In this document: positions 3,643 through 58,822 of the stretch, in pieces
Position numbering within the stretch: position 1 is the first letter of the stretch
Layout: every line of letters begins with the position of its first letter
NCBI GenBank assembly: GCA_024231025.1
Contig: JAAEQW010000256.1
Span: forward strand, 2,954-66,953
DNA from: Candidatus Omnitrophota bacterium
GTDB taxonomy: Bacteria; Omnitrophota; Gorgyraeia; Duberdicusellales; 4484-171
DNA: 64,000 nucleotides
Reading direction: 5' to 3'
The notes under the pieces: generated by a model
What the model was told of the DNA's origin: nothing
Database searches by the model: none
The model's input: only the letters and a program-made list of their open reading frames with translations
Translations under genes and position numbers: made by a program

Positions 3643-4163
3643 TTAAATTGTTTTTTTTGACCATACTAGTCTTAAATTTATATGGTTGTGGCTACTCTAC
3701 GATGGCGTCATCTTATAGTGAAAATAAAATCTTTATCGTTCCGGTAGAGAATAAAGTCAATATTACTTCTGAGGCGAGAAATTATTCCAACTACAATAGC
3801 TTTCCTCTTTTATTGGAGAAGAAGCTGACCAATTCATTAGTTAACCAATTCAACACTGATGGCCATTTTAAAGTTGTAAGCACCCAAGATGAGGCCCTGG
3901 TTCTTGAGTGTAAAGTTGATAATTATGAAAAAACTGCCCTTCGCTATACTGACAGCGACGATGTCAAGGAGCAGCGGTTAAGATTGCGTGTTACTGTTAA
4001 GCTTAGTGATTCTTCAGGCGCAATGCTTGATACTAAAAAAGTGGTTGGGCAAACTAGCTATTTTCTTTCAGGACCAAACAGAAAAAGCGAAGCAGCCGCT
4101 CAAGTTGAGTTGATCGAAGATACCGTAAGAAGAATATCTGAGGTAGTAGTAGAACGGTGGTAA
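3639..4163 (+). CDS. Lipoprotein, LptE-like (LPS assembly) candidate
   Basis: Lipobox-like LNLYGCGYS and a size of about 170 aa. Its position between leuS and a holA-like gene mirrors the conserved leuS-lptE-holA order of Proteobacteria. Confidence 0.4.
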   Translation: MIKLFFLTILVLNLYGCGYSTMASSYSENKIFIVPVENKVNITSEARNYSNYNSFPLLLEKKLTNSLVNQFNTDGHFKVVSTQDEALVLECKVDNYEKTALRYTDSDDVKEQRLRLRVTVKLSDSSGAMLDTKKVVGQTSYFLSGPNRKSEAAAQVELIEDTVRRISEVVVERW

Positions 4164-13470: not shown

Positions 13471-14329
13471 ACGTTTTAGCGCGTTAAGAATTAGCTGGAT
13501 AAGTATTGCGATCAATTTGATTTTGGCTGTTGCTAAGATAACTGTAGGCGTACTCTCTAATAGCATTGCTATAATTAGCGACGCGATACATAGTTTAAGC
13601 GATTTAGCAACCACTGTTGTTGTAATTTTAAGTTTGCGTGTAAGCAAAAAACCTGCCGACAGAAAACATCCTTTCGGACATGGCCGCGCGCAAGATGTTG
13701 GGGGGTTAATACTTTCAATTGGTCTTGTTTTGGTTGGTGTCGGTTTTTTCAAAACAGCAGCATCGCGTTTAATATCTCCTGAGCCGGTTAACGTTAACTT
13801 TGTTTTTGTGGGAGTTATTTTGATATCGGCAGCGATTAAATTGATATTAGGTGCAATTACGCACCGAATATCTGTCTTAGAGCGTTCGGCGATTCTAAAA
13901 GCCGATGCGTATCATCACTATAGCGATTTTGTTACTAGCTTTGTGGTGGCAATTGGTTTTATTTTTGCCAGGACGAATGTTAATTTAGACTCTTGGTTAG
14001 GAATTTTTATTGCTTTGATAATTATTTTTTGGGCAATAAGATCAGGCAAAGAGTTCTCTGATAATCTTATTGGCAAAAGAGCCTCGCCGCAGGTTTATCA
14101 AAAGGTGAGGGCGATTGCGCATTCGTTTGAAACTGTTTTAGGTGTGCACGATATCCAAGCGCACAGCTACGGCCAACATAGAATAATTTCTCTTCATGTG
14201 GAAGTTGATCCCAATCTTTCTTTAGAAGAAGCGCATGGCGTTGCCGATAGTATCGAAAAAAAGATACGCTATCAACGTTTGGGCAAGTGCATTGTTCATG
14301 TGGATATAAAGCGCAGTATTCAGTCGTAA
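13460..14329 (+). CDS. Cation diffusion facilitator (CDF) family metal efflux transporter
   Basis: CDF signature HSLSDLATT, six TM helices, and a C-terminal cytoplasmic domain. Confidence 0.8.
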   Translation: MKNKRFSALRISWISIAINLILAVAKITVGVLSNSIAIISDAIHSLSDLATTVVVILSLRVSKKPADRKHPFGHGRAQDVGGLILSIGLVLVGVGFFKTAASRLISPEPVNVNFVFVGVILISAAIKLILGAITHRISVLERSAILKADAYHHYSDFVTSFVVAIGFIFARTNVNLDSWLGIFIALIIIFWAIRSGKEFSDNLIGKRASPQVYQKVRAIAHSFETVLGVHDIQAHSYGQHRIISLHVEVDPNLSLEEAHGVADSIEKKIRYQRLGKCIVHVDIKRSIQS

Positions 14330-22547: not shown

Positions 22548-22552
22548 TAATA

Positions 22553-22643
22553 ATATTACGTAGGGACAGGTTTTTAACCTGTCCTTTATAGAATTAAAAT
22601 ATTACGTAGGGACAGGTCGTGACCTGTCCGTTATAGAATTAAA
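22553..22643 (+). repeat. Two tandem copies of a roughly 46-bp unit, each carrying an 8-bp-stem hairpin (GGACAGGT...ACCTGTCC), in the etfB-etfA spacer
   Basis: Copy 1 is 22553-22598 and copy 2 is 22599-22643. The stems are identical and the loops differ (TTTTA vs CGTG). Confidence 0.7.
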
Positions 22644-22645
22644 AC

Positions 22646-23836
22646 ATGAGTGGAATAAAAGTAATAAATGAGAGTTGTGTTGGTTGCGGGGTATGCCTAA
22701 AGGCGTGTCCGGTTGATGCAATAAGTATGGTTGATAAAAAAGCGGTTATCGATTTGGATCGGTGCACTTTGTGTGGAGCCTGCGTTAGCAGCTGTAAATT
22801 TAACGCAATCCAAATCATACGTCAGGCGGTAGCTAAAGAGGATATATCAAATTATAAAGGTGTATGGGTATTTGCCGAGCAGCGTGACGGTGAGATTGCT
22901 TCTGTTGCTTTTGAACTTCTCAATAAAGCGGCTGTGTTAGCTGGTGACCTTGGCACTTATGTTGGTGCGGTGCTTCTTGGCTATGGAGTTGAAGAGAAAG
23001 CTCAAGAATTAATTCATCGCGGGGCCAATAAAGTGTTTGTTATGAATTCACAAGTCCTAAAGGAATATGTCGCGGAAAATTATTCTGCCGCTATTGTAAA
23101 TTTAGTTAAAAAACATAAACCAGAAATTATTTTAGCCGGTGCGACAACAACCGGCAGGAGCCTTGTTTCACGCATTGCGGTTAGCCTTTACACTGGTTTA
23201 ACTGCTGATTGCACCGCTCTTGACATTGATAAAGAAAAAAAGATCCTAATTCAGACCCGTCCTGCTTTTGGCGGCAATATTATGGCACAAATTATTTCGC
23301 CCGATTATCGCCCTCAGATGGCAACTGTTCGCCATAAGGTGATGCCCGAGAGCGCTAGCGATCCAACACGAACTGGTGAAGTAATCGAAGAAGTGTTTGA
23401 TTTAAATTGGCAAGACAAAAGGCTAAAATTTTTAGATTTTATAAAAGAAGCAGTTTCAACCGTTAATCTTGCCGAAGCGGATATTATTGTTTCCGGTGGT
23501 CGCGGCTTAGGCGATGGCGCAAATTTTAAGATAATTGAGGAGTTTGCTCAAAGCATTGGTGCTGCGGTTGGTTCTTCTCGCGCGGCGGTAGACAGTGGGT
23601 GGATCCCTTATTCGCATCAGGTAGGTCAAACCGGACGTACAGTTTGCCCGAAAATCTATATTGCTTGCGGAATATCCGGTCAAATCCAACACCTAGTTGG
23701 GATGCAGTCTTCAAAAACGATTATTGCGATCAACAAAGATCCTGATGCCCCAATTTTTAAGGTAGCCGATTATGGCATTGTTGGTGATTTATTCAAAATA
23801 CTCCCGCTTTTAACCAAGCACTTTAAGCAGGCGTAG
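22646..23836 (+). CDS. etfA: Electron transfer flavoprotein alpha subunit with an N-terminal 2x[4Fe-4S] ferredoxin domain (FixB/CarE-like)
   Basis: Two CxxCxxCxxxCP motifs (CVGCGVCLKACP; CTLCGACVSSC), then the EtfA FAD-binding domain. Confidence 0.85.
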   Translation: MSGIKVINESCVGCGVCLKACPVDAISMVDKKAVIDLDRCTLCGACVSSCKFNAIQIIRQAVAKEDISNYKGVWVFAEQRDGEIASVAFELLNKAAVLAGDLGTYVGAVLLGYGVEEKAQELIHRGANKVFVMNSQVLKEYVAENYSAAIVNLVKKHKPEIILAGATTTGRSLVSRIAVSLYTGLTADCTALDIDKEKKILIQTRPAFGGNIMAQIISPDYRPQMATVRHKVMPESASDPTRTGEVIEEVFDLNWQDKRLKFLDFIKEAVSTVNLAEADIIVSGGRGLGDGANFKIIEEFAQSIGAAVGSSRAAVDSGWIPYSHQVGQTGRTVCPKIYIACGISGQIQHLVGMQSSKTIIAINKDPDAPIFKVADYGIVGDLFKILPLLTKHFKQA

Positions 23837-24042: not shown

Positions 24043-27000
24043 ATGATTTTACAATTACAAAGAAGACGGGCGTCGATTTCGTTTAGAGCAGTGGCAATAA
24101 TCGTTACCACTGTTTTTTTATTTTCTGTTTTTTCACTATACTTAAGCAAGTCACATCGGGTGTATGCATCAGCATTGCCTTATATGTCTGCACCGGCAAA
24201 GCTAGTTAGCACTAGTAGCACCTTTAACCCTCCTTTATTGCGTGGGATAAAACTTCATGCCGATAATCCATTTAAAATTGATTTTATAGTTGACCAGGGC
24301 GATTTTAGCCGGTCATCTAGTGAGTTAGAAGAAGAAACTAAGCGTTTAATTAAGTATTTTCTGGCTTCAATCACCATTCCGGAAGAGGATTTATGGGTTA
24401 ATCTTTCGCCTTATGAAAAAGATAGAATGGTTCCTAACGCCTTGGGTCTTACTGATATGGGCCGAGATCTTTTGGGGGAAGATTACGTTCTAAAACAATT
24501 AACCGCTTCCTTAACCTATCCGGATAGCCCTTTAGGGAAAAAGTTCTGGGATAAGGTTTATGAGCGCACCGAACAGCTCTATGGAACGACTAATATCCCT
24601 GCAAATACTTTCAGTAAAATTTGGATTATGCCGCAAAAGGCAGTGGTTTATGAAGACCGCAGTGGTGCCTTTGTTGCCGAGAGCCATTTGAAAGTTATGA
24701 TGGAGGCTGATTATTTTGCTGCGCAAAAGAATCAGCAGACCATAGACCATAGACTACAGACCACAGACCACAGACCAGAGACCAGAGGCCGTAAACCGGA
24801 CACCGTAACTGATGTTTCGGCTGCAATCATGAAAGATGTGATTTTGCCGGTAATCGAGGAAGAAATAAACACTGGTGCACAATTTGCTCACTTGCGTCAA
24901 ATTTATCACTCTTTAATTTTAGCGACATGGTTTAAAAAGAAATTAAAGCAGACCGCGCTTGAAAAAGCTTATATAGGTAAAAACAAGATAAAAGGCGCCG
25001 ACACCAGTGATCCGCAAATTAAAGAGAAAATTTACAACCAATACTTAGAAGCTTACACCAAAGGCGCATACAACTATATTCGCCGCGATCTCGACGTAAA
25101 AACAAATCGCCGTGTTAGTCGCCGCTACTACTCAGGCGGATTCACTACTGCCGGAGAAATGGATGAAGCATTTGATGCTAGGCCACTAGAGAGGCTTCCG
25201 GCCGGGCAAAGCCCGAGTGATTTTGATAACGGACCATCAACTCTTTTCCAGACTGATTTATCAGCTCTTTTAGGAGATGGTGAAGAAGTTAACATGAGTC
25301 GTCATTTTCGCACATCAGCACAAGCAGAAACAGTGACAACGGGGCTAATGAACGCATTAGAAAGCAAAGGAATAGTTTTTAGTCCAAAACAATGGCAGGG
25401 TTATGGTCATGCGGATGCATACACTCGTAATATGATAGGTAGAATTGTTACTGTAGTCGGGGAGGTAATAGATAATGATTCGTCAGATCCAATTAGTTTG
25501 TCTGCCCAAGACATGGCCTTTCAGCGCGAAAATGGAAGAGACCCGATTCAATTGCACTTGACGAAAGAAGATAAAGGTAATACGACTACGTTTTCAATTA
25601 CCTTTGTTAGTCAGAGTAACCAGGGTATTGTTGATATTGCGCTAGACAACGGTGGTCAAATTGTAGAAACTGATCATCGTCCAATTGCCTCTAATCGGAT
25701 GGCACGATTTAAAACCTGGGATCCAAAAGCTGCCCAAATGCTTGACTCGCTACAAAGATTAGAACCAACTGCCAATTTACTCGCGATAATTACCAATGGT
25801 CGACTTTTAGATTGGGTGCAGTTGCTTTGGAAGGGCGCGGTTCCGTCTTTAGATGAGCTAAAAAATTATACATTGGGTGATGTAGCTGATCATTTGAGTT
25901 GGCCAAGTTCGCTTACAGAAGGAATAGATGAGTTAATCAGCTCAATGAAAGCAGCGACTTTAATTGAATATGAGGAGATGGACGAAAATGGCGAAATGGT
26001 AAAAGTGACAAAAGAGTGGAGAGATCCCACAAATAGTTTAGCAAATAGGCTTAAAAAAGCGCAAAAGAGAAAAGATGCAATAGATAAAGAATTTGCTCCA
26101 GCGATAAAGCGGCTGGAAGCTCGCAGAAAGACAATAGCCGCGAGCGATGAAGGTGAAGAAGATAAAAAAAAGGCGATAGCCGAAGTGGATAAAGCGACTG
26201 CTATTGAAAAAAACAAGGCAGAAGCCCGAAAAAGGAGAATAGACATTAGCTTGGCTCGTGCAATCTCAAAGTATTCGGCGGCTCGGCTTTATCCGGGGCG
26301 CGAACCTCGCCTTTTCTTGCCAACACCAAAATACACTCTAGGCGAAATACAGGATTACCTGTCAGCTTTGTTAAATGAACCTGATGGAATTTCGACAAAA
26401 GTTGCGCAAGAAACAAGCGCAAGAGAAAAAAGGCTTGAGCTTTCAGGCAAAGCAGCTGAAATTTTGGTTAATGTATTGAGTAATGAGGGTGTAGAATTTC
26501 AACCAAAACGAGAATCCAGTGAACTTGCACCTACACCTCTTGAGCACGATGTTTACATCAAAGGCATAATTTCTCAAATTACTGCGATGCTTAATCGAGT
26601 AAAGGAAACAGACAGATTAACCCAAAGTGATTTACTCTACCAAGAAATTAATAGCAATAGTGTAATTAACCTAAACGTTGAAAGGGCGCCTAGCGAGCAA
26701 GGAACTGTATTGTCTGTTGCTTGGCATCGTACCAGTAGTAGCCCTGCCATTACGGATAACGCCCAGGGGGTAATTAATCTTACTATTTCAAATGAGGGCG
26801 AAATCACTACCTCTTTAGGGATTATTAAAAATGGTAAAGGGGGATTACCCGCAAGAACTTTTTCGCCAGAAAGCCCCAAAGGCCCAACCCCGGCAGATCG
26901 CCCATCATTACTGCCTGGTGGCTTCAACAGTCCCCCTGTGGTGGCCGGCAATAAGCCAAGCGATGATACTACAATAACAATTTCGCAAGATCCCCATGAA

Positions 27001-27747
27001 AAAAGTGGTGATTTAGCCGAAGTTTTAATTGACGCCTTAAAAAGCAAGGGAATAGCGTTTCAATTAAAAAGAGGTGCCAACGCAGTTAATAGTGGCGATT
27101 ATGCTGCTAAGATGAATAACGCTGTTAGCGAAATGTTTAGATGGGCAATAGCGACAGGATCTGGCGAATTATTTCCAGAAGATATGTTATTTCAAGGCAA
27201 TCATGGTGAAGATGTAATTAATTTAGCGGCTAACAGGAGTGTTAATCCTCAAGAGAAAATTACTGTTCGTTGGTATCGCAGGGGTGATCCTTCTGTGACT
27301 GATGATCAAGGGAGGGTTGATATTGTCATCTCAGAAGAGGGTCGAGTGAGTATTTTCCACCAGTTAATTAAGCCGCTTGACAGAAATGCCTTAGACGGTG
27401 CGCCTTTGGTTGGCGGTGGAGCAAGAACCTGGGGCGATGTTCTAGATTCTCCGGTATCAGAAGATAATGTGCCGTTTACCGAGCGTAACGGGGCGACAAT
27501 TCGGGTTAAGAAAAAGAAGTCACAAGTGGCTAAGAAGGAAATTAAAGGTAAAGGTAAGGGTAAGGACAGTTATGTTGGCGGTATCGATTTGGATACCGAT
27601 AATTGGGACGTTCAAGTTAAAGGTGGTGGAGCAGAGGTTTCCAGCTTTACGGATCTTCCTTTTGATGTTAAAAATTTGCGCGGGTTCACGCTTGAAATTT
27701 GTGATCGCAGCAGTGTTAACTCGGACGAATTGTTTGCCGTAAGATAG
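24043..27747 (+). CDS. Giant (about 1234 aa) signal-anchored protein of unknown function, paralog A. It has a conserved N-terminal domain shared with the 54668-58822 gene, internal repeat modules, and a Lys/Glu-rich coiled coil
   Basis: Long uninterrupted ORF with a GGAG Shine-Dalgarno 6 nt before the ATG at 24043 (the tracker start at 24031 is TTG). N-terminal TM helix. Residues ~45-375 align with the other giant ORF (ASALPYMSAP...WVNLSP.EKDR...GEDYVLKQLTASLTYP...RRYYSGG). Confidence 0.6.
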   Translation: MILQLQRRRASISFRAVAIIVTTVFLFSVFSLYLSKSHRVYASALPYMSAPAKLVSTSSTFNPPLLRGIKLHADNPFKIDFIVDQGDFSRSSSELEEETKRLIKYFLASITIPEEDLWVNLSPYEKDRMVPNALGLTDMGRDLLGEDYVLKQLTASLTYPDSPLGKKFWDKVYERTEQLYGTTNIPANTFSKIWIMPQKAVVYEDRSGAFVAESHLKVMMEADYFAAQKNQQTIDHRLQTTDHRPETRGRKPDTVTDVSAAIMKDVILPVIEEEINTGAQFAHLRQIYHSLILATWFKKKLKQTALEKAYIGKNKIKGADTSDPQIKEKIYNQYLEAYTKGAYNYIRRDLDVKTNRRVSRRYYSGGFTTAGEMDEAFDARPLERLPAGQSPSDFDNGPSTLFQTDLSALLGDGEEVNMSRHFRTSAQAETVTTGLMNALESKGIVFSPKQWQGYGHADAYTRNMIGRIVTVVGEVIDNDSSDPISLSAQDMAFQRENGRDPIQLHLTKEDKGNTTTFSITFVSQSNQGIVDIALDNGGQIVETDHRPIASNRMARFKTWDPKAAQMLDSLQRLEPTANLLAIITNGRLLDWVQLLWKGAVPSLDELKNYTLGDVADHLSWPSSLTEGIDELISSMKAATLIEYEEMDENGEMVKVTKEWRDPTNSLANRLKKAQKRKDAIDKEFAPAIKRLEARRKTIAASDEGEEDKKKAIAEVDKATAIEKNKAEARKRRIDISLARAISKYSAARLYPGREPRLFLPTPKYTLGEIQDYLSALLNEPDGISTKVAQETSAREKRLELSGKAAEILVNVLSNEGVEFQPKRESSELAPTPLEHDVYIKGIISQITAMLNRVKETDRLTQSDLLYQEINSNSVINLNVERAPSEQGTVLSVAWHRTSSSPAITDNAQGVINLTISNEGEITTSLGIIKNGKGGLPARTFSPESPKGPTPADRPSLLPGGFNSPPVVAGNKPSDDTTITISQDPHEKSGDLAEVLIDALKSKGIAFQLKRGANAVNSGDYAAKMNNAVSEMFRWAIATGSGELFPEDMLFQGNHGEDVINLAANRSVNPQEKITVRWYRRGDPSVTDDQGRVDIVISEEGRVSIFHQLIKPLDRNALDGAPLVGGGARTWGDVLDSPVSEDNVPFTERNGATIRVKKKKSQVAKKEIKGKGKGKDSYVGGIDLDTDNWDVQVKGGGAEVSSFTDLPFDVKNLRGFTLEICDRSSVNSDELFAVR
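24736..24784 (+). repeat. Heptanucleotide microsatellite [(C/T/G)AGAC(C/T)A]x7 inside the coding sequence of giant gene A
   Basis: Units cagacca, tagacca, tagacta, cagacca, cagacca, cagacca, gagacca. They encode TIDHRLQTTDHRPETR. Confidence 0.8.
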
Positions 27748-41997: not shown

Positions 41998-44071
41998 AGT
42001 TTATTTTTTATTCGGTATTCATAATCATCAACCAGTAGGTAATTTTGATCATGTTTTTGAATACGCCTATAAGCGTTGTTATTTTCCTCTTCTAGAGACT
42101 CTCGCCAATTTTCCTAAAATAAAATTTAGTGTACACATCAGCGGTCCCCTTTATGATTGGATCTTAAAAAATCGTAAAGAGTATGTAAGTCTTTTAAAGG
42201 AGATGGTTACTCGCGGCCAGGTTGAGATAATCAGCGGCGGATATTACGAACCGATTTTGCCTTTAATTTCCGATCGTGACAAAAAAGCTCAAATCCAAAA
42301 AATGAATGATTTCATTTCAAAAGAATTTAATTGCACCGCTAGTGGTCTTTGGCTTGCCGAGCGGGTTTGGGAGCCAAACTTACCAGCGATAATTAATCCT
42401 TGTGGATTAGATTATACTTTTTTAGATGATACTCATTTCCGTTTTGCCGGAATCAACAAGAATGAATTCACAGGTTATTATACAACTGAGGACCAGGCTT
42501 TTGGTTTGAAGATTTTTCCAATCAGCAAAGCGCTAAGATATAAAATACCTTTTTCAAGCGCGCAAGAGGGGATCGATTTGCTTAATTCGTTTGCTAGCGA
42601 AGAAGATGTGCTAGTTACATTTTTTGATGATGGAGAAAAATTTGGTCTTTGGCCGAATACTTATGATTGGGTGTATGAGAAGGGCTGGCTTAAAACATTT
42701 CTAACGTATCTTAGCGATTCATTAACTATTGAGACGATTAAGCCGAGTGAGGCAGCACTTAAATTTTCTTCCAGCGGAATAGTTTATTTGCCTACCGCCT
42801 CCTATGAGGAGATGGGGGAGTGGGTTTTATCTGCGGATAGTTTTAATACCTATGACAGATTGAATAACTTTTTAAAGAATCAAAATAAATTTGAAGAATT
42901 CAAAAATTTTGTGAGGGCAGGATTTTTTAGAAATTTTAATCGCAAATATCCGCGCCTTAATTACATGCACAAAAGAATGCTTTCGGTTAGCAAAAAGCTA
43001 CATGCGTATTTGAAAAATGGTGATAAGGCATTTACGAATTTATTTAAGGCCCAAACTAATTGCAGCTATTGGCACGGTGTTTTTGGGGGATTTTATTTGG
43101 GTCATATTCGCGGGGCAGTATATGAAAATCTTATTTGTGCCTTAAATCAACTGGATAAGAAAATTCAAAAGCACGATTTGGTAGTGGAGGAAGAAGATAT
43201 TGATTTAGATGGCGTAAAAGAAACAATTGTAAAAAATAAAAAAATGATCTGTTGTTTTTCACGTAAGGGTGGCACTCTTCTTGAATGTAGCCTGCGTAAT
43301 CCAGCAATCAATTTAACGAACACAATTACTCGTACGGTTGAATCCTATCATAAAAAAATTAAAGAAAATGTGAATGTTGATGCCTCTGTTGCTTCAATCC
43401 ATGATATAGTGGTTCAGAAAGACAAGGATTTAGATAAATTCCTGATTTACGATAATTATGAAAAAGTTAGCCTGATTGATCACCGCTTAGATAAAGATAT
43501 TACGATTGCCGATTTTAATACCGGAAATAAAATCACCACGTTTAGCGATAAAAATTATAACCTTTTAATAAAAAAAAGCACAAAGCAAGCTTCCCTAAAG
43601 TATAAATACGATTCGCAAACAATAAGTTTTACCAAAGAAGTAATCTTAAAAGGGGCATCTTCTTTCGCTGTTGAATATTCACTTAACAATTATTTAGAAA
43701 ATTGTGATTTTGGCGTTGAGTTTAATTTATTTTTACCTTCATTGAAAGATATTGTTGCTGTATCAGAAGGAAAATCTTCCAAAAGCGCTGGTCCTAAAGG
43801 CGTTACGATCAAAAAAGAAAATAAAAAAATATCTTTAAATGAGCCCAAAGTGTTTGATAGCTGTTGTTCGTTTGTTATAATAGGTAATCATAAAAGAATA
43901 AGTTTAGAGTTTGGTTGCGAAGACGCCTGTGTATTTACGATGCCGCTTTATTCGGTATCCTCATCTGAAGCGGGATTCGAAAAGGCGTATCAGCAATTGT
44001 CAGTTCTTTTTAAATTTTCAGGGGAGCGTAAAAAAATTCATTTTACCTTTAAGGTAAAAAAAGGGGAGTAA
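41990..44071 (+). CDS. Glycoside hydrolase family 57 enzyme (third paralog; alpha-amylase / 4-alpha-glucanotransferase-like)
   Basis: N-terminus VYFLFGIHNHQPVGNF. 693 aa with a C-terminal extension. Confidence 0.7.
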   Translation: MGKVYFLFGIHNHQPVGNFDHVFEYAYKRCYFPLLETLANFPKIKFSVHISGPLYDWILKNRKEYVSLLKEMVTRGQVEIISGGYYEPILPLISDRDKKAQIQKMNDFISKEFNCTASGLWLAERVWEPNLPAIINPCGLDYTFLDDTHFRFAGINKNEFTGYYTTEDQAFGLKIFPISKALRYKIPFSSAQEGIDLLNSFASEEDVLVTFFDDGEKFGLWPNTYDWVYEKGWLKTFLTYLSDSLTIETIKPSEAALKFSSSGIVYLPTASYEEMGEWVLSADSFNTYDRLNNFLKNQNKFEEFKNFVRAGFFRNFNRKYPRLNYMHKRMLSVSKKLHAYLKNGDKAFTNLFKAQTNCSYWHGVFGGFYLGHIRGAVYENLICALNQLDKKIQKHDLVVEEEDIDLDGVKETIVKNKKMICCFSRKGGTLLECSLRNPAINLTNTITRTVESYHKKIKENVNVDASVASIHDIVVQKDKDLDKFLIYDNYEKVSLIDHRLDKDITIADFNTGNKITTFSDKNYNLLIKKSTKQASLKYKYDSQTISFTKEVILKGASSFAVEYSLNNYLENCDFGVEFNLFLPSLKDIVAVSEGKSSKSAGPKGVTIKKENKKISLNEPKVFDSCCSFVIIGNHKRISLEFGCEDACVFTMPLYSVSSSEAGFEKAYQQLSVLFKFSGERKKIHFTFKVKKGE

Positions 44072-44077
44072 AATTCC

Positions 44078-44216
44078 AAATAACAAATCCCAAATCACAA
44101 ACAAACCACAATTCTAAATGTTCAAAATAACAAATAGAATCTATGATATTGTTTTGGATATTAAATTATTTGAATTTGGACATTGTTTGTAATTTGTTTT
44201 TTGTAACTTGTAATTT
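44078..44216. repeat. Palindromic AT-rich intergenic element, copy 1. Its CA-rich left arm and TG-rich right arm are inverted copies of the arms at 44505-44650, so the two copies bracket the DUF2934 gene
   Basis: Left arm CCAAATAACAAATCCCAAATCACAAACAAACCACAATTC. The right arm GAATTTGGACATTGTTTGTAATTTG is the reverse complement of 44525-44548. Confidence 0.7.
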
Positions 44217-44504
44217 TTGATAATACGAGGTAAAGAAAAAAAGGGGAGGTTTGAGATGCCGTTTCTAAAAAGGAAAAAAACAAAAGTGAAAGTATCCGCT
44301 AAAATCAAAGCGGCCGTGAAGAAAAGTGCAAAAATAGCTGCTAAAAAAACAATAGCTAAGAAGCCAAAGCTTGATGAAGCTCGTCTAAACCAAATGATTA
44401 AAGAAAGAGCTTATTATATTTGGGAAGAAAGGCAACGACCCAATGGGCAAGATTCTGATATCTGGGCGCAAGCTGAAAAAGATATGCATAAGAATATCAA
44501 ATAA
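44217..44504 (+). CDS. DUF2934-like small basic protein
   Basis: Lys/Ala-rich N-terminus and C-terminal motif RAYYIWEERQRPNGQDSDIWAQAE. Shine-Dalgarno AAGGGGAGGTTT. Confidence 0.5.
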   Translation: MIIRGKEKKGRFEMPFLKRKKTKVKVSAKIKAAVKKSAKIAAKKTIAKKPKLDEARLNQMIKERAYYIWEERQRPNGQDSDIWAQAEKDMHKNIK

Positions 44505-44650
44505 CAAATCACAAATTTCAAAATACAAACAATGTCCAATTGCCAAAAATCCAATGAACAAAAGGGTATTATTTTATTTTGTTTGATATTTTAGTTATTT
44601 GGAATTGTGGTTTGTTTGTGATTCGTGTATTGTGTATTGTAATTTTTTGA
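44505..44650. repeat. Palindromic AT-rich intergenic element, copy 2
   Basis: ATTTGGAATTGTGGTTTGTTTGTGATT (44600-44626) is the reverse complement of 44092-44118 with one mismatch. The same AAGGGGAGGTTT Shine-Dalgarno module follows. Confidence 0.7.
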
Positions 44651-54667: not shown

Positions 54668-57600
54668 TTACATCGATAACTTTTTAAATAGATCGGTGAT
54701 TTCCTTTGAACCAAGTATTTTGTAGCCGAATCCGGGAAAATCCTTAATTGTTTGTTCGGAGGCCTTGTAAGTATGGAAGACCTTTAAACCTTTGCCTTTT
54801 ACAGTTATATTGCCTCTATCTGTTAAGTCAACGCCTCCAAGGGTGTCGCGCTCACCTTGATAGTTACTGTCTTGCCCGTATTCCTGTTTGATCCCCTCTA
54901 ATGCATCAGAGGTTGTACTTATGACTTCAACATCAGCCATATTTAAAGTTTTCAACATTTCCTCCAATGTTTCAGAAGAGTTCTCAATGAGAAGAGCCAA
55001 AGCTATATTTGAAATGAGACCCAGATCCTCTAATTCATCTTTCAAATCCCAGGGTGCTTCAGCCGATCCTTGAGCAAGAGATTCACCAAATAAATCAGAT
55101 AAGCGCTCTTCTTCATCGTTATCAATTCCAGAAAGGTCATGACCTTCTTGGCGAAGGTGTCTTATAAAAGCGTGAAATGTTTCATGACCGTCACGAAATC
55201 TCTTAGCAAAGTTAAGATCGATTTCTTTAGGGTCTTTATTAAGGCGCTTGGCTAGTTCAGGTATTTGATCTTCTAATTCTTCGTCGGAGGTGTAAATAGT
55301 TTGTTTACCGGTTGCTAAATTTTCAACCATCCAGCCAAAAGATTTTCCACCAAGCATCAACGGTTTCGCAATAACTTGCATCTGGCGCAGAATTGTTTTA
55401 GCCAGCGCTTTGTTTCCATTGGGGTGACTTTTCATAATTCCTGCTGCTTGAGGGATTGATTCTAAATATTCATGAGAGTAAGCAAAGCGGTATCCTTGGG
55501 CTCTATGAGCATGAGTTGCACCATCTTTAAAGCGGGCGTCTGTGGCTTTTTCAAAAGCAGCATTTATCGGACTGTTATTATAGTTATCCGAGGCTAAAGC
55601 TATTGCGGTGAGTCCGTCAATTACTTCTTTTTGTGCTAGAAGATTATGTATATTTTGTGCGCTTAAAAGTGCACACAATGCCTCAATTACTTTGTCGGCA
55701 CCGTTGTTGTTGTCGATAACATATTGAATTGCCTGAGGTAAAACTTTTTTTGCTGAATCTAGAGTATCAGATCCACCGTGTTTGCCACGTAGAAGATGTG
55801 AAAGAGCAATAGCAATATCCTCACTACCCCCTCGGATAATTGAATATGCATCATCGCTGGCAAGAAGATATCTTACTTCTTCTTCGCGGGTTTCCGGTTG
55901 CCAGCCTATTGCTTTAAGGCCTTGGGCAGAATTGAGACCAAAATTTTTGCTCTGATTACCTAATCCATGGCTTAGGGTTGAGGTGACGACGGCTCCAACG
56001 TCGTTAGGAAGACTCTTTTTTTGTGTTTTAGCTAGGGCAGCGCTAATGTAAAGAATAGCGAATTCTCTTTTTCTATCGTCTTTTTCATAAATAGGACGTC
56101 TGTAAACGTCTTTTCCGGGACCAATAATTTGAGCCAACCCAACAGGATTATGTCTGAGATAATTTTCGTAATCTGTTTCTTCGCCTCGAACGATCTGATA
56201 TAGTAAATCTAATCCACCCGGTACATCATTAATTAACTCCATCAATTTGGCTTCAGTGCTTTCGTCATAAAATATGTACCTATTATCGATGCCGATAGAC
56301 CCTTTGAAAATTTCAATAATTGCTTTTTTAGGGTCGGAAGGTAGCGCTAATGATTCTTTTATTGTGTATCCGGCTAGGGCGAGAGTCGCGGTACCCGCAA
56401 TACCTCCTCCAAGTTTTTTAAGAAAGTCACGTCGCGGCATACTCATGGTGTATGCTTGTTGCCCGGCTGCTCGCAGGCGTTCTTTAGTTTCTGCCATTTC
56501 CGCAGGAGTGCTTGATTTAACGATTATATCAACACCGAATCGCTGCTTGATTATTTTATCCAATTCGTAGGGGTCCTTGTTGTCGCTCAGATTTTGGTTT
56601 TGCAAGTATTCCCAGAGGTCACTTATTAGCGAAAGTCCGTTTTGTGATAAGTGAATGTTAATTTGTGCCTCCAAAGCGCTTATTCTTTCTTCATGTTGGG
56701 GCGGAATCTTATTGCGCCCTAGGGCCCAAGAAATCGCAAAGATGTCGGCTAATTTTTCATTATGTTCAAATCCAATAAGTTCAAAAATGAGGTGAGCGGT
56801 TTCATGACCGTCAATAAAACGAATTGCCATTTCAGGGGTAACCGTTACATCAGTTATTCCCAAACCCTCAAGAAGTTCTTGGAAATCTTGAATATATTCC
56901 TCAATAGTTTTATCGTTATGATGAATTGTTATACTGCCGTCAGCGCCGGGTACAAATAATCCCTGTAGATTGTCATTTAGCATTTTTTCCATCGCCTTTG
57001 TGCCTTCTGATCCAGATGCACCATCATTCTCAACGGGTTCAATAGATATTGATTCATCTGATACCCCTTCGCTGTCTTGAGTCCAGGTAACCTTAACTTG
57101 GCGGCCGCGATACCATGCCAATTGACTTAAAATTCTTTTTTTCTGCTCATCGGAAAGTGCCTCATTCTTTTCAACAGTATCCATAAGTTCTTCAGCTGTA
57201 TCTCTAAAATCAGCGTTGATGGTTACCAATACAATGTGAAATAGAAAAAACCCTGGCTTTGATTCTTCTTCAATCGCTATCGATTCATCTAATACCCCTT
57301 CGCTGCCTTGAGTCCAGGTAATTTTAACTTCATTCTTGCCAAGCTTTTTCAGATTTTCTAATATTATCTCCTTTTGCTTATCAGAAAGTGCCTCATTCTT
57401 TTTGATATCTTCCATAAGTTCTTCAGCTGTGCCTTTAAGATTGGCTTTTATGATCATTATTGGAGAGGTAAATATAACAGCACCTCGCTGATTATTATCT
57501 TCATAGACTACCTCTTGCTCGATGTGTGTTTCTTCTGATAGAGGCAGTGGTTCAATTTTGGCCATGTTTTTTGGGGTTGAAGCACAGGCGATTTCCAGTC

Positions 57601-58822
57601 CACCTGCGACTAAAACAACTGCAAGGTTAGTTAAAGGGTTTTTTTTCAATTTCTCTGCAACTTTACCAGATTTTCCAGCTAATGGTTGTCGACCTTTTTT
57701 TACAACATTGCCGGTTTTTTTAGCAAATTTGACACCGCCAGAGTAATAGCGGCGATTGATGTGTTTTTTGGAGGATGGGTCAAAATCTTTTTTGATGTAA
57801 TCGTAGACACCTTTTTTGTATGCTTGAAGGTATTGATCGTAAATTTTATTTTTTAATTCAGGGTCATTATGTTTTATGCTGTCTATCTTTTTCTGATCAG
57901 CGGAAAGTTGAGTTACAATATGTTCTTTTAGCTTTTGCTTAAACCAGGTAGCTAAAAGTAATGAGTGGTAAACTTGGCGGAGATGTGAGAAATTCTTACC
58001 ATAATTTACATCACGTTCGATTTCGGGCAAAACCTCTTCCTTAAGTATTTCTGAGGTTATTTCGTGTATTTTTTCTTTTTGTCCGGCGCTTGCTTTAGGC
58101 GATTGGCGCAGATGACTTTGGTTTTCCATTGCGAGATAATCTTGTTCCGACATTACCTTAAGATAGCTCTCAGTTATAATTGCTTTGTCGTCATCTTCGT
58201 ATATTGTGGCACTTTGGGGAACAATCCAAACTTTATTGAAGGTGTCTATTGGAATTTTAATTGTACCGAAAAGCTCGCTGGCTTTAGCATAAATTTTTTG
58301 CCAGTATTGTTTGCCGATTTTATTTTCAGGATAAGTTAAAGAGGCTGTTAATTGTTTTAGGACATAATCTTCACCAAGCATATCCGCGCCCATATCGGTT
58401 TGGGCGAGTGTTTCAGGAATGACGCGATCTTTTTCGTGAGGAGAAAGATTAACCCAAAGGTCGTCTTCGGGCATAGTTAACGCGGCAAGAAAATAGCGGA
58501 TTAGTGTGTTGCTTTCTTCTTTTAATTTTTCTTTACCGAAATTGCTATTTCCCGCATCAACAATGAATTCAAATTTAAAAGGGTCATCGCCAAATACTTT
58601 AATTCCTCGCAGTATTGGTGCATCAAACGCAACGCTTGCATCAATTAGCTTGGTGGGGGCGGACATGTAGGGCAGGGCAGAGGCGTAGGCTGACGATGTT
58701 TGCAGGGCCGGTGTGCGCATAATCAATGTGCTAATTCCCGCAAGCAGCACCCCTGATGCGATAAAAACTGCTAAAATCTTAAAGGAAATCGACCCTTTTC
58801 TAAGTACTGATAGTTTATGCAT
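54668..58822 (-). CDS. Giant (1384 aa) signal-anchored protein of unknown function, paralog B. It has a conserved N-terminal domain shared with 24043-27747, a tandem ~75-aa repeat, two DGHETxH motifs, and an internal Tat-like motif
   Basis: Uninterrupted ORF with an N-terminal TM helix (ILAVFIASGVLLAGISTLIM). Residues ~45-365 align with giant A. Confidence 0.6.
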   Translation of the reverse strand: MHKLSVLRKGSISFKILAVFIASGVLLAGISTLIMRTPALQTSSAYASALPYMSAPTKLIDASVAFDAPILRGIKVFGDDPFKFEFIVDAGNSNFGKEKLKEESNTLIRYFLAALTMPEDDLWVNLSPHEKDRVIPETLAQTDMGADMLGEDYVLKQLTASLTYPENKIGKQYWQKIYAKASELFGTIKIPIDTFNKVWIVPQSATIYEDDDKAIITESYLKVMSEQDYLAMENQSHLRQSPKASAGQKEKIHEITSEILKEEVLPEIERDVNYGKNFSHLRQVYHSLLLATWFKQKLKEHIVTQLSADQKKIDSIKHNDPELKNKIYDQYLQAYKKGVYDYIKKDFDPSSKKHINRRYYSGGVKFAKKTGNVVKKGRQPLAGKSGKVAEKLKKNPLTNLAVVLVAGGLEIACASTPKNMAKIEPLPLSEETHIEQEVVYEDNNQRGAVIFTSPIMIIKANLKGTAEELMEDIKKNEALSDKQKEIILENLKKLGKNEVKITWTQGSEGVLDESIAIEEESKPGFFLFHIVLVTINADFRDTAEELMDTVEKNEALSDEQKKRILSQLAWYRGRQVKVTWTQDSEGVSDESISIEPVENDGASGSEGTKAMEKMLNDNLQGLFVPGADGSITIHHNDKTIEEYIQDFQELLEGLGITDVTVTPEMAIRFIDGHETAHLIFELIGFEHNEKLADIFAISWALGRNKIPPQHEERISALEAQINIHLSQNGLSLISDLWEYLQNQNLSDNKDPYELDKIIKQRFGVDIIVKSSTPAEMAETKERLRAAGQQAYTMSMPRRDFLKKLGGGIAGTATLALAGYTIKESLALPSDPKKAIIEIFKGSIGIDNRYIFYDESTEAKLMELINDVPGGLDLLYQIVRGEETDYENYLRHNPVGLAQIIGPGKDVYRRPIYEKDDRKREFAILYISAALAKTQKKSLPNDVGAVVTSTLSHGLGNQSKNFGLNSAQGLKAIGWQPETREEEVRYLLASDDAYSIIRGGSEDIAIALSHLLRGKHGGSDTLDSAKKVLPQAIQYVIDNNNGADKVIEALCALLSAQNIHNLLAQKEVIDGLTAIALASDNYNNSPINAAFEKATDARFKDGATHAHRAQGYRFAYSHEYLESIPQAAGIMKSHPNGNKALAKTILRQMQVIAKPLMLGGKSFGWMVENLATGKQTIYTSDEELEDQIPELAKRLNKDPKEIDLNFAKRFRDGHETFHAFIRHLRQEGHDLSGIDNDEEERLSDLFGESLAQGSAEAPWDLKDELEDLGLISNIALALLIENSSETLEEMLKTLNMADVEVISTTSDALEGIKQEYGQDSNYQGERDTLGGVDLTDRGNITVKGKGLKVFHTYKASEQTIKDFPGFGYKILGSKEITDLFKKLSM
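57050..57470 (-). repeat. Intragenic tandem duplication (about 230-bp unit x2, roughly 80% identical) in giant gene B, encoding two roughly 75-aa modules
   Basis: Protein repeats TAEELMEDIKKNEALSDKQKEIILENLKKLGKNEVKITWTQGSEGVLDESIAIE and TAEELMDTVEKNEALSDEQKKRILSQLAWYRGRQVKVTWTQDSEGVSDESISIE. Confidence 0.8.

Follow-up and report, generated by a model that had tools for sequence, protein, structure and literature searches.

Is a heptanucleotide repeat that lies in frame within a coding region a switch for its gene or just a spacer which the protein tolerates? This question is raised by a tandem array in 64,000 nucleotides (nt) of DNA from Candidatus Omnitrophota (GenBank assembly GCA_024231025.1, contig JAAEQW010000256.1, positions 2,954 to 66,953 of the forward strand), a stretch which is called the window in the following. 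The array is located in a gene for a protein of 1234 amino acids (aa), here designated gene A, which has a paralog, B, in the same window. The original prediction had regarded it as a candidate contingency locus, in which slipped-strand mispairing switches a surface protein on and off. The mechanics of the proposed frameshift are borne out by our analysis, but the array is probably a slippage-born, frame-filtered heptanucleotide microsatellite that is tolerated as a disordered hydrophilic spacer.

The array and its host gene

The features at the locus and in the paralog are as follows.
24043..27747, + strand: gene A, 1234 aa, ATG at 24043, identical to P0001/MCP4652873.1 (GY858_05765, metagenome-assembled genome (MAG) of Candidatus Omnitrophica)
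24076..24153, + strand: predicted N-terminal hydrophobic helix, about residues 12-37 (approximate, converted from the model numbering, helix 13-38)
24706..24831, + strand: variable linker of the N-terminal domain (N-domain), between the motifs LKVMxExDY and LPxIExExNxGxxFxxLRQ, confidence of the structural model (pLDDT, see below) 39-54 (converted from protein numbering)
24736..24784, + strand: heptanucleotide array of seven units with CAGACCA consensus and four variant positions, encoding QTIDHRLQTTDHRPETR, codons 232-248 of gene A
24756..24777, + strand: longest uninterrupted period-7 tract, ACAGACCACAGACCACAGACCA, 22 nt or 3.1 units
24785..24805, + strand: three decayed units, GAGGCCG, TAAACCG and GACACCG, with 4/7 matches each
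54668..58822, - strand: paralog B, 1384 aa (GY858_05880, P0040), with an N-domain as in gene A
58034..58135, - strand: homologous linker of paralog B, aa 230-263, LAMENQSHLRQSPKASAGQKEKIHEITSEILKEE, without heptamer repeat (converted from protein numbering)

The units CAGACCA, TAGACCA, TAGACTA, CAGACCA, CAGACCA, CAGACCA and GAGACCA follow one another exactly as they had been listed in the original prediction. Tandem Repeats Finder (TRF) assigns to them a period of 7, 7.0 copies, 88% matches and a score of 70, which is the highest of all short-period arrays in the window. This score was reached by none of 200 first-order shuffles of the window (shuffle maximum 50), and the two-unit pattern AGACCANAGACCA, with at most one mismatch, occurs six times against 0.13 expected, each time at the array site. 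The array is therefore real and non-random, and an origin by chance is excluded. An assembly artefact was ruled out as well because the 49 nt are shorter than a read and are flanked on both sides by homology in one frame. With its head-to-tail 7-nt unit and a copy number above the compositional expectation the array belongs to the long simple sequence repeats (SSRs), a class with units of 5-11 nt. The designation as a perfect array had to be withdrawn: it is a mosaic of variant and decayed units, and the 22-nt tract at 24756-24777 is the sole part expected to slip appreciably. The decayed units behind it look like older copies from the same array.

Gene A, which had been called giant and is better described as large, begins with a predicted hydrophobic helix, in which we see a membrane or signal anchor. 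Besides this helix the protein comprises a conserved N-domain (about 330 aa), a middle region that is unique and, at the C-terminus, a GGIDL module. Paralog B is 48% identical over aa 9-371, has a weak C-terminal GG[IV]DL module in common with gene A and is homologous on both sides of the array. DNA and protein alignments agree that the array lies within the N-terminal domain, that the corresponding linker of paralog B is free of repeats, as had been claimed, and that the linker of gene A is about 24 nt (8 aa) longer.

Counted from the ATG at 24043, the array starts in phase 0 at codon 232. Whichever of the six frames is read, the unit CAGACCA is free of stop codons, and in the sense direction it is read as the hydrophilic cyclic heptapeptide QTTDHRP. 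A change of unit number within the open reading frame (ORF) alters the frame of gene A: gain or loss of one or two CAGACCA units lets the product stop at 245-259 aa, while three units more or less keep the frame. The unit is not a multiple of three; as the array stands in frame and one- or two-unit slips lead to early stops, such a slip would inactivate gene A, and in this point the original prediction was right.

No Pfam or NCBIfam model recognises the gene A protein. An ortholog is absent from the collections searched, the next-best match being 55% identical and restricted to the N-domain, and in a collection of 15 billion proteins gene A forms a singleton cluster on one contig. A pattern of the array flanks that allowed 5-9 units found no match in the genome and metagenome contig collections.

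The N-domain family and its variable loops

The N-terminal region of about 370 aa of gene A is present in more than 3,700 database proteins, almost all of them from Omnitrophota where the organism is named, and at least ten members of the family occur in the MAG of gene A itself. The N-domain is fused to diverse C-terminal parts (radical SAM, HATPase, methyltransferase, kinase, HEAT, PPDK_N, NUDIX, PGK and PGI), and many of the proteins end in a GG[IV]D[LF] module. A similar range of fusions has been reported for the giant 'Archaeovorin' proteins (bioRxiv 10.1101/2023.11.21.568195). Pfam and NCBIfam contain no model for the family, and no fold in the PDB matches it. In the window the N-domain, consisting of the hydrophobic anchor and an alpha/beta domain, spans 24043-25150 (A) and 57700-58822 (B).

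Residues 1-379 of gene A were modelled with AlphaFold from an alignment of 28 trimmed sequences. The model, with a mean predicted local distance difference test (pLDDT) of 72.5 and a predicted template modelling score (pTM) of 0.62, has a hydrophobic helix at the N-terminus, which precedes a mixed alpha/beta domain. Its lowest-confidence internal stretch comprises residues 240-254 (pLDDT below 50), which form a coil joining the helices 222-238 and 255-278 and overlap the peptide encoded by the array; across residues 231-260 the block means of pLDDT are 51, 39 and 54. The array-encoded peptide is hydrophilic and predicted to be disordered. Among 97 homologs the linker measures 30-68 aa, with a mode of 36 aa and 42 aa in gene A, and about 70% of the family members keep the 36-aa length with a recognisable consensus.

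Gene A is not the only member with a period-7 insertion. In the same loop the locus L241 (P0119) contains (AGTCATC)x4.3 and (CTGACGA)x4.3, i.e. other units, and a second loop of the N-domain contains (AGTCCGA)x4.6 in L245 (P0009; L245 1398-1429). Peptides with a lag-7 periodicity were found in the linker of 4 out of 217 family members and in the upstream domain of none (0/217), a pattern that fits repeated birth of arrays and their retention where extra hydrophilic residues are tolerated.

Two observations on these relatives may be added. In P0005 and P0009 the second loop, which comes after the motif LILATWFKKKLK, carries insertions such as the peptides QTIDNRPKTIDRSP and SVDNSPKSEVLSPKSGVDNRQ, and gene A has no insertion there. 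P0119 (L241-L244, positions 1-361) is located directly downstream of a giant gene, whose called length in four assemblies ranges from 9,234 to 35,120 aa.

Period-7 arrays beyond gene A

In the window TRF reports eight period-7 rows (starting at 14327, 15111, 24736, 30358, 44077, 44493, 44616 and 61505), whereas 100 shuffles yield 2.19 on average and never more than 5. The seven other arrays have A/T-rich units in 2-4.6 copies and are mostly intergenic. An exact scan for three CAGACCA units gave at least 120 loci each in the genome and the metagenome collections (L001-L240), and the following counts refer to the matches listed. They come from Acidobacteriota, Planctomycetota, Chloroflexota, Bacteroidota, Verrucomicrobiota, Actinomycetota, Cyanobacteria and Omnitrophota, some MAGs having several copies per genome. 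The arrays are often situated at contig ends or paired with an inverted array nearby. Judged by lag-7 self-similarity their footprints cover 21-204 nt, corresponding to 3 to about 29 units, and mix related heptamers; of the 197 arrays flanked by more than 300 nt on both sides, 41 lie within an open frame that extends beyond them by at least 300 nt in either direction.

Within the 1.55 Mb of these matches 500 TRF rows have period 7, while no period outside the multiples of 7 accounts for more than 84. The excess is specific to the period of 7 and not to one sequence, as 172 distinct canonical heptamer units occur in the same loci; for this reason a sequence-specific mobile CAGACCA element was ruled out. 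Two orthologous CAGACCA arrays of another lineage, whose flanks are 96-98% identical, differ in length by exactly two units, so arrays of the size of that in gene A do change over evolutionary time. A search with the peptide (QTTDHRP)x6 matched ORFs of 34-73 aa alone, which are probably spurious calls over long intergenic arrays.

This background agrees with what has been described for other bacteria. The tandem heptanucleotides of Calothrix PCC7601 go by the name 'STRR'. Such heptamers are known from cyanobacteria including Calothrix PCC7601, from Xanthomonas and Nostoc (GGGAATC repeats) (PMC4692102) and from Beggiatoaceae (TAACTGA repeats) (PMC4679880), thus at many loci in distant phyla and sometimes as inverted stem-loop pairs. 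Those repeats are overwhelmingly intergenic, whereas the array of gene A is coding, has a different unit, possesses no inverted partner and is unable to form a G-quadruplex. According to the same two papers, heptanucleotide repeats are the commonest class of long SSR in the majority of bacterial genomes, with slippage of the polymerase as the proposed source (PMC4692102; PMC4679880). As far as the work of Mrazek (2007) is summarised there, the heptanucleotide-dominated 5-11-nt SSRs of free-living bacteria share with our array the period of 7, modest copy numbers, unit variants, a proposed slippage origin and a genome-wide period-7 excess, and no specific physiological role is required; unlike these mostly intergenic SSRs the array of gene A is coding and kept in frame. 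It matches the published heptanucleotide-SSR pattern and represents a kind of repeat already known, unusual only in being intragenic.

A further comparison is provided by the Omnitrophota among the matches, 8 of the 120 genome loci, which carry nine arrays and belong to genomes of relatives. In six cases the array stands in frame and in sense orientation (QTTDHRP) within a Pfam-verified housekeeping enzyme, where (CAGACCA)n comprises about 4.5-6.5 units; in two further cases it is translated in antisense (LWSVVCG) and supplies the hydrophobic core of an N-terminal segment resembling a signal peptide.
L038:4907-6091, - strand: MiaB-type methylthiotransferase, array between the UPF0004 and Radical_SAM domains
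L062:3913-6903, + strand: PurS-PurL fusion, array at the domain junction
L081:7049-7999, + strand: ALAD/HemB, array followed by an inverted partner, both translated, about 27 aa added
L090:1596-2891, - strand: EPSP synthase (AroA) with array
L091:508-1359, - strand: DAP epimerase (DapF) with array
L113:543-1436, + strand: quinolinate phosphoribosyltransferase (QRPTase, NadC) with array
L038:4805-4839, opposite strand: antisense array
L106:1356-1396 of the reverse-complemented locus: antisense array

An ON/OFF switching of such enzymes is implausible. Because the same arrays stand in frame in housekeeping enzymes of Omnitrophota, an array capable of causing a frameshift is no marker of a contingency gene, and in the relatives this repeat type does not mark non-essential surface genes. 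In L038 the charged stretch MIDRRPQTVDRRPK in front of the antisense array derives from a sense-type array, and from the sequence the inverted pair seems to encode the whole signal-peptide-like N-terminal segment.

Selfish elements in protein genes have been known from another group. The Rickettsia palindromic elements are repeats of about 100-150 bp which exist in many near-identical copies and are inserted in frame in protein genes. Like them, the CAGACCA arrays of Omnitrophota are tolerated in frame in protein loops including those of essential enzymes. Unlike them, the array of gene A is a simple, non-palindromic tandem repeat with a single copy in the window, and therefore not an element of this type.

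Apart from gene A, two intergenic regions of the window flank a small lysine-rich ORF (44071-44230 and 44493-44650), each starting just after a stop codon. Each consists of a (CAAATNA)n array followed 60-90 nt later by an inverted (TTGTNNA)n array, and both pairs are able to form long imperfect hairpins. The z-score of the RNA fold is -3.3 for 44071-44230 (0/200 shuffles as stable) and -1.5 for 44493-44650; both may be terminator-like elements built from heptamer arrays. The highest TRF score of the window (151) belongs to a 45-nt unit tandemly duplicated between two ORFs at 22552-22644. Each copy contains a GGGACAGGT...ACCTGTCC hairpin, and the ORF at 22646, which begins just downstream, may thus be preceded by a duplicated terminator or by a duplicated regulatory hairpin.

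Switch, spacer or signal

With residues 1-231 of gene A as query many short ORFs of the family were found, and three cases on long contigs were inspected as possible OFF alleles of a heptamer switch. None of them is due to heptamers. The split in L249 results from a one-base change in a T-run; judging by its name, this contig probably stems from a long-read assembly. L250 is a nanopore contig. In L246-L248 the minimal family member P0187 is split by a G8 tract at the linker (about 3670-3700); with G7 or G10 in its place the N-domain of 231 aa would be joined to a GGVDF module of 68 aa. At least 13 contigs carry this tract, all of them with G8. The predicted in-frame products of G7 and G10 as well as those of G6 and G9 are absent from the collection, according to exact-sequence look-ups that are biased against variants. 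The split of P0187 could be a fixed pseudogene, a homopolymer switch or a programmed frameshift. For gene A itself no OFF allele or allele of alternative length is on record, in a sampling which is uninformative and by exact look-ups which are biased against variants.

How do these data bear on a contingency locus? According to this explanation slipped-strand mispairing toggles gene A, at an elevated and selected rate, between a full-length product (7, 4 or 10 units) and products of 245-259 aa and so diversifies a surface repertoire. Several findings speak for it: the 7-nt unit in an in-frame array, early stops after slips of one or two units, the N-terminal anchor, a large paralogous family, and related paralogs with heptamer-like peptides at the same linker. 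A CAGACCA-type array is also known to differ by two units between near-identical loci, as described above. Contingency loci are also represented by the CTCTT tracts of the opa genes of Neisseria. The repeat in gene A resembles these tracts and the intragenic frameshifting (AATTTTG)14 of the large adhesin gene hmw1a (PMC2651432) in that its unit is not a multiple of three, lies in the 5' part of a large multi-paralog and probably surface gene, and truncates the product upon one-unit slips. However, the phase-variation tracts of Haemophilus influenzae upstream of hmw1a/hmw2a consist of 13-38 heptanucleotide units and that in the ORF of 14, the most permissive threshold for a listing in this organism being at least 3 units (PMC2651432). 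The tract of gene A is interrupted and decaying, just reaches this threshold with its 3.1 perfect units, and no polymorphism is documented for it. Its difference from hmw1a and opa also lies in the fact that repeats of this type are found in housekeeping genes and between genes, against a general period-7 background, and that the organism is an uncultured environmental bacterium and no host-adapted pathogen. Phase variation is defined by polymorphism of the tract and by a high reversible switching rate that is measurable without selection (PMC11868660). In view of the short tract, of the missing variant alleles, uninformative as the sampling is, and of the split family genes, which go back to a T-run indel, a nanopore contig and a fixed G8 tract instead of heptamers, a contingency locus appears unlikely. 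Thus, the slip mechanics of the original prediction stand, but the switch which had been derived from them is not backed by the comparative data.

The array could also have been kept because in-frame changes by three units (7 aa) adjust the length of a functional, flexible linker between two helices of the N-domain. The linker lengths of 30-68 aa in the family, the maintenance of the frame by three-unit changes and the hydrophilic peptide with its predicted disorder speak for such a tuning. Nevertheless, in the roughly 70% of the family with the 36-aa consensus linker the length is not free, the repeat peptide bears no sign of selection, and its occurrence in unrelated enzymes points to tolerance rather than function, so that we regard this possibility as quite doubtful. 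Still another explanation would place the function in the nucleic acid, either as a protein-binding array in DNA or mRNA (for a binder of the OB-fold, i.e. oligonucleotide/oligosaccharide-binding fold, or cold-shock type) or as a pausing or structural signal. It has indeed been proposed that regulators acting post-transcriptionally bind to direct repeats of heptamers, one heptamer being bound by each CspB protein (PMC4679880); moreover, the window has intergenic heptamer arrays which stand in inverted pairs immediately behind stop codons. The array of gene A, by contrast, has no inverted partner, is the sole CAGACCA-type array in the 64 kb and is unpaired in the predicted mRNA fold. Together with the 172 canonical units among the matches, which speak against a sequence-specific reader, and the absence of any match to an Rfam family in the window, this makes such an element very improbable.

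The explanation we favour remains the tolerated microsatellite. Replication slippage would create and remodel the array in a length-tolerant disordered loop of the N-domain of gene A, where the QTTDHRP-type peptide would sit at the surface as a neutral spacer. The array lengths that survive would be those whose net length keeps the frame of gene A. The perfect 22-nt core may still slip occasionally, and the resulting out-of-frame alleles would be plain nulls which are purged or drift, given the many paralogs, without any selected reversible switch. The data show the array, its frame, its position in a loop, the general period-7 excess and the in-frame arrays of housekeeping genes and of loops in relatives; the slippage origin, near-neutrality and a low present-day rate of slippage are what we infer.

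Several points weigh against this explanation. A high slippage rate at the array would be compatible with the data as well, and it is plausible that the protein of gene A is extracytoplasmic and that the cell can do without it. The arrays in housekeeping genes used for comparison come from genomes other than that of gene A. In addition, P0006 (QTRDHRPETKD), P0005 (QQTRDQRP) and, more weakly, P0024 and P0004 have heptamer-like linker peptides which are compatible with degenerate NNAGACC arrays; P0006, P0024 and P0004 are from the MAG of gene A and P0005 is from another bin of the same study. An SSR site conserved across paralogs is also seen in contingency families such as opa. Finally, the array can still be recognised at a mere 55% or so of identity in the flanking domain, and this persistence hints at a continuing turnover and not at pure decay.

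It has little probability in our eyes that period-7 microsatellites are an active, phylum-wide source of variation in loops and signal peptides of Omnitrophota and that the arrays conserved at one loop of the membrane-anchored N-domain family, that of gene A included, act as stochastic ON/OFF switches. If this were true, they would be the first contingency loci described in an uncultivated, ultra-small and possibly predatory bacterium. Phase variation would then extend to free-living or epibiotic candidate phyla, and the unannotated N-domain family would be marked as a variable surface repertoire. If the array is a tolerated spacer, it is a cautionary case, as an intragenic repeat capable of causing frameshifts is no evidence for a contingency locus where heptanucleotide arrays abound. 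The remaining value is modest and concerns annotation and repeat biology: heptamers are accommodated in frame in essential enzymes of Omnitrophota, as antisense segments resembling signal peptides and as inverted arrays after stop codons.

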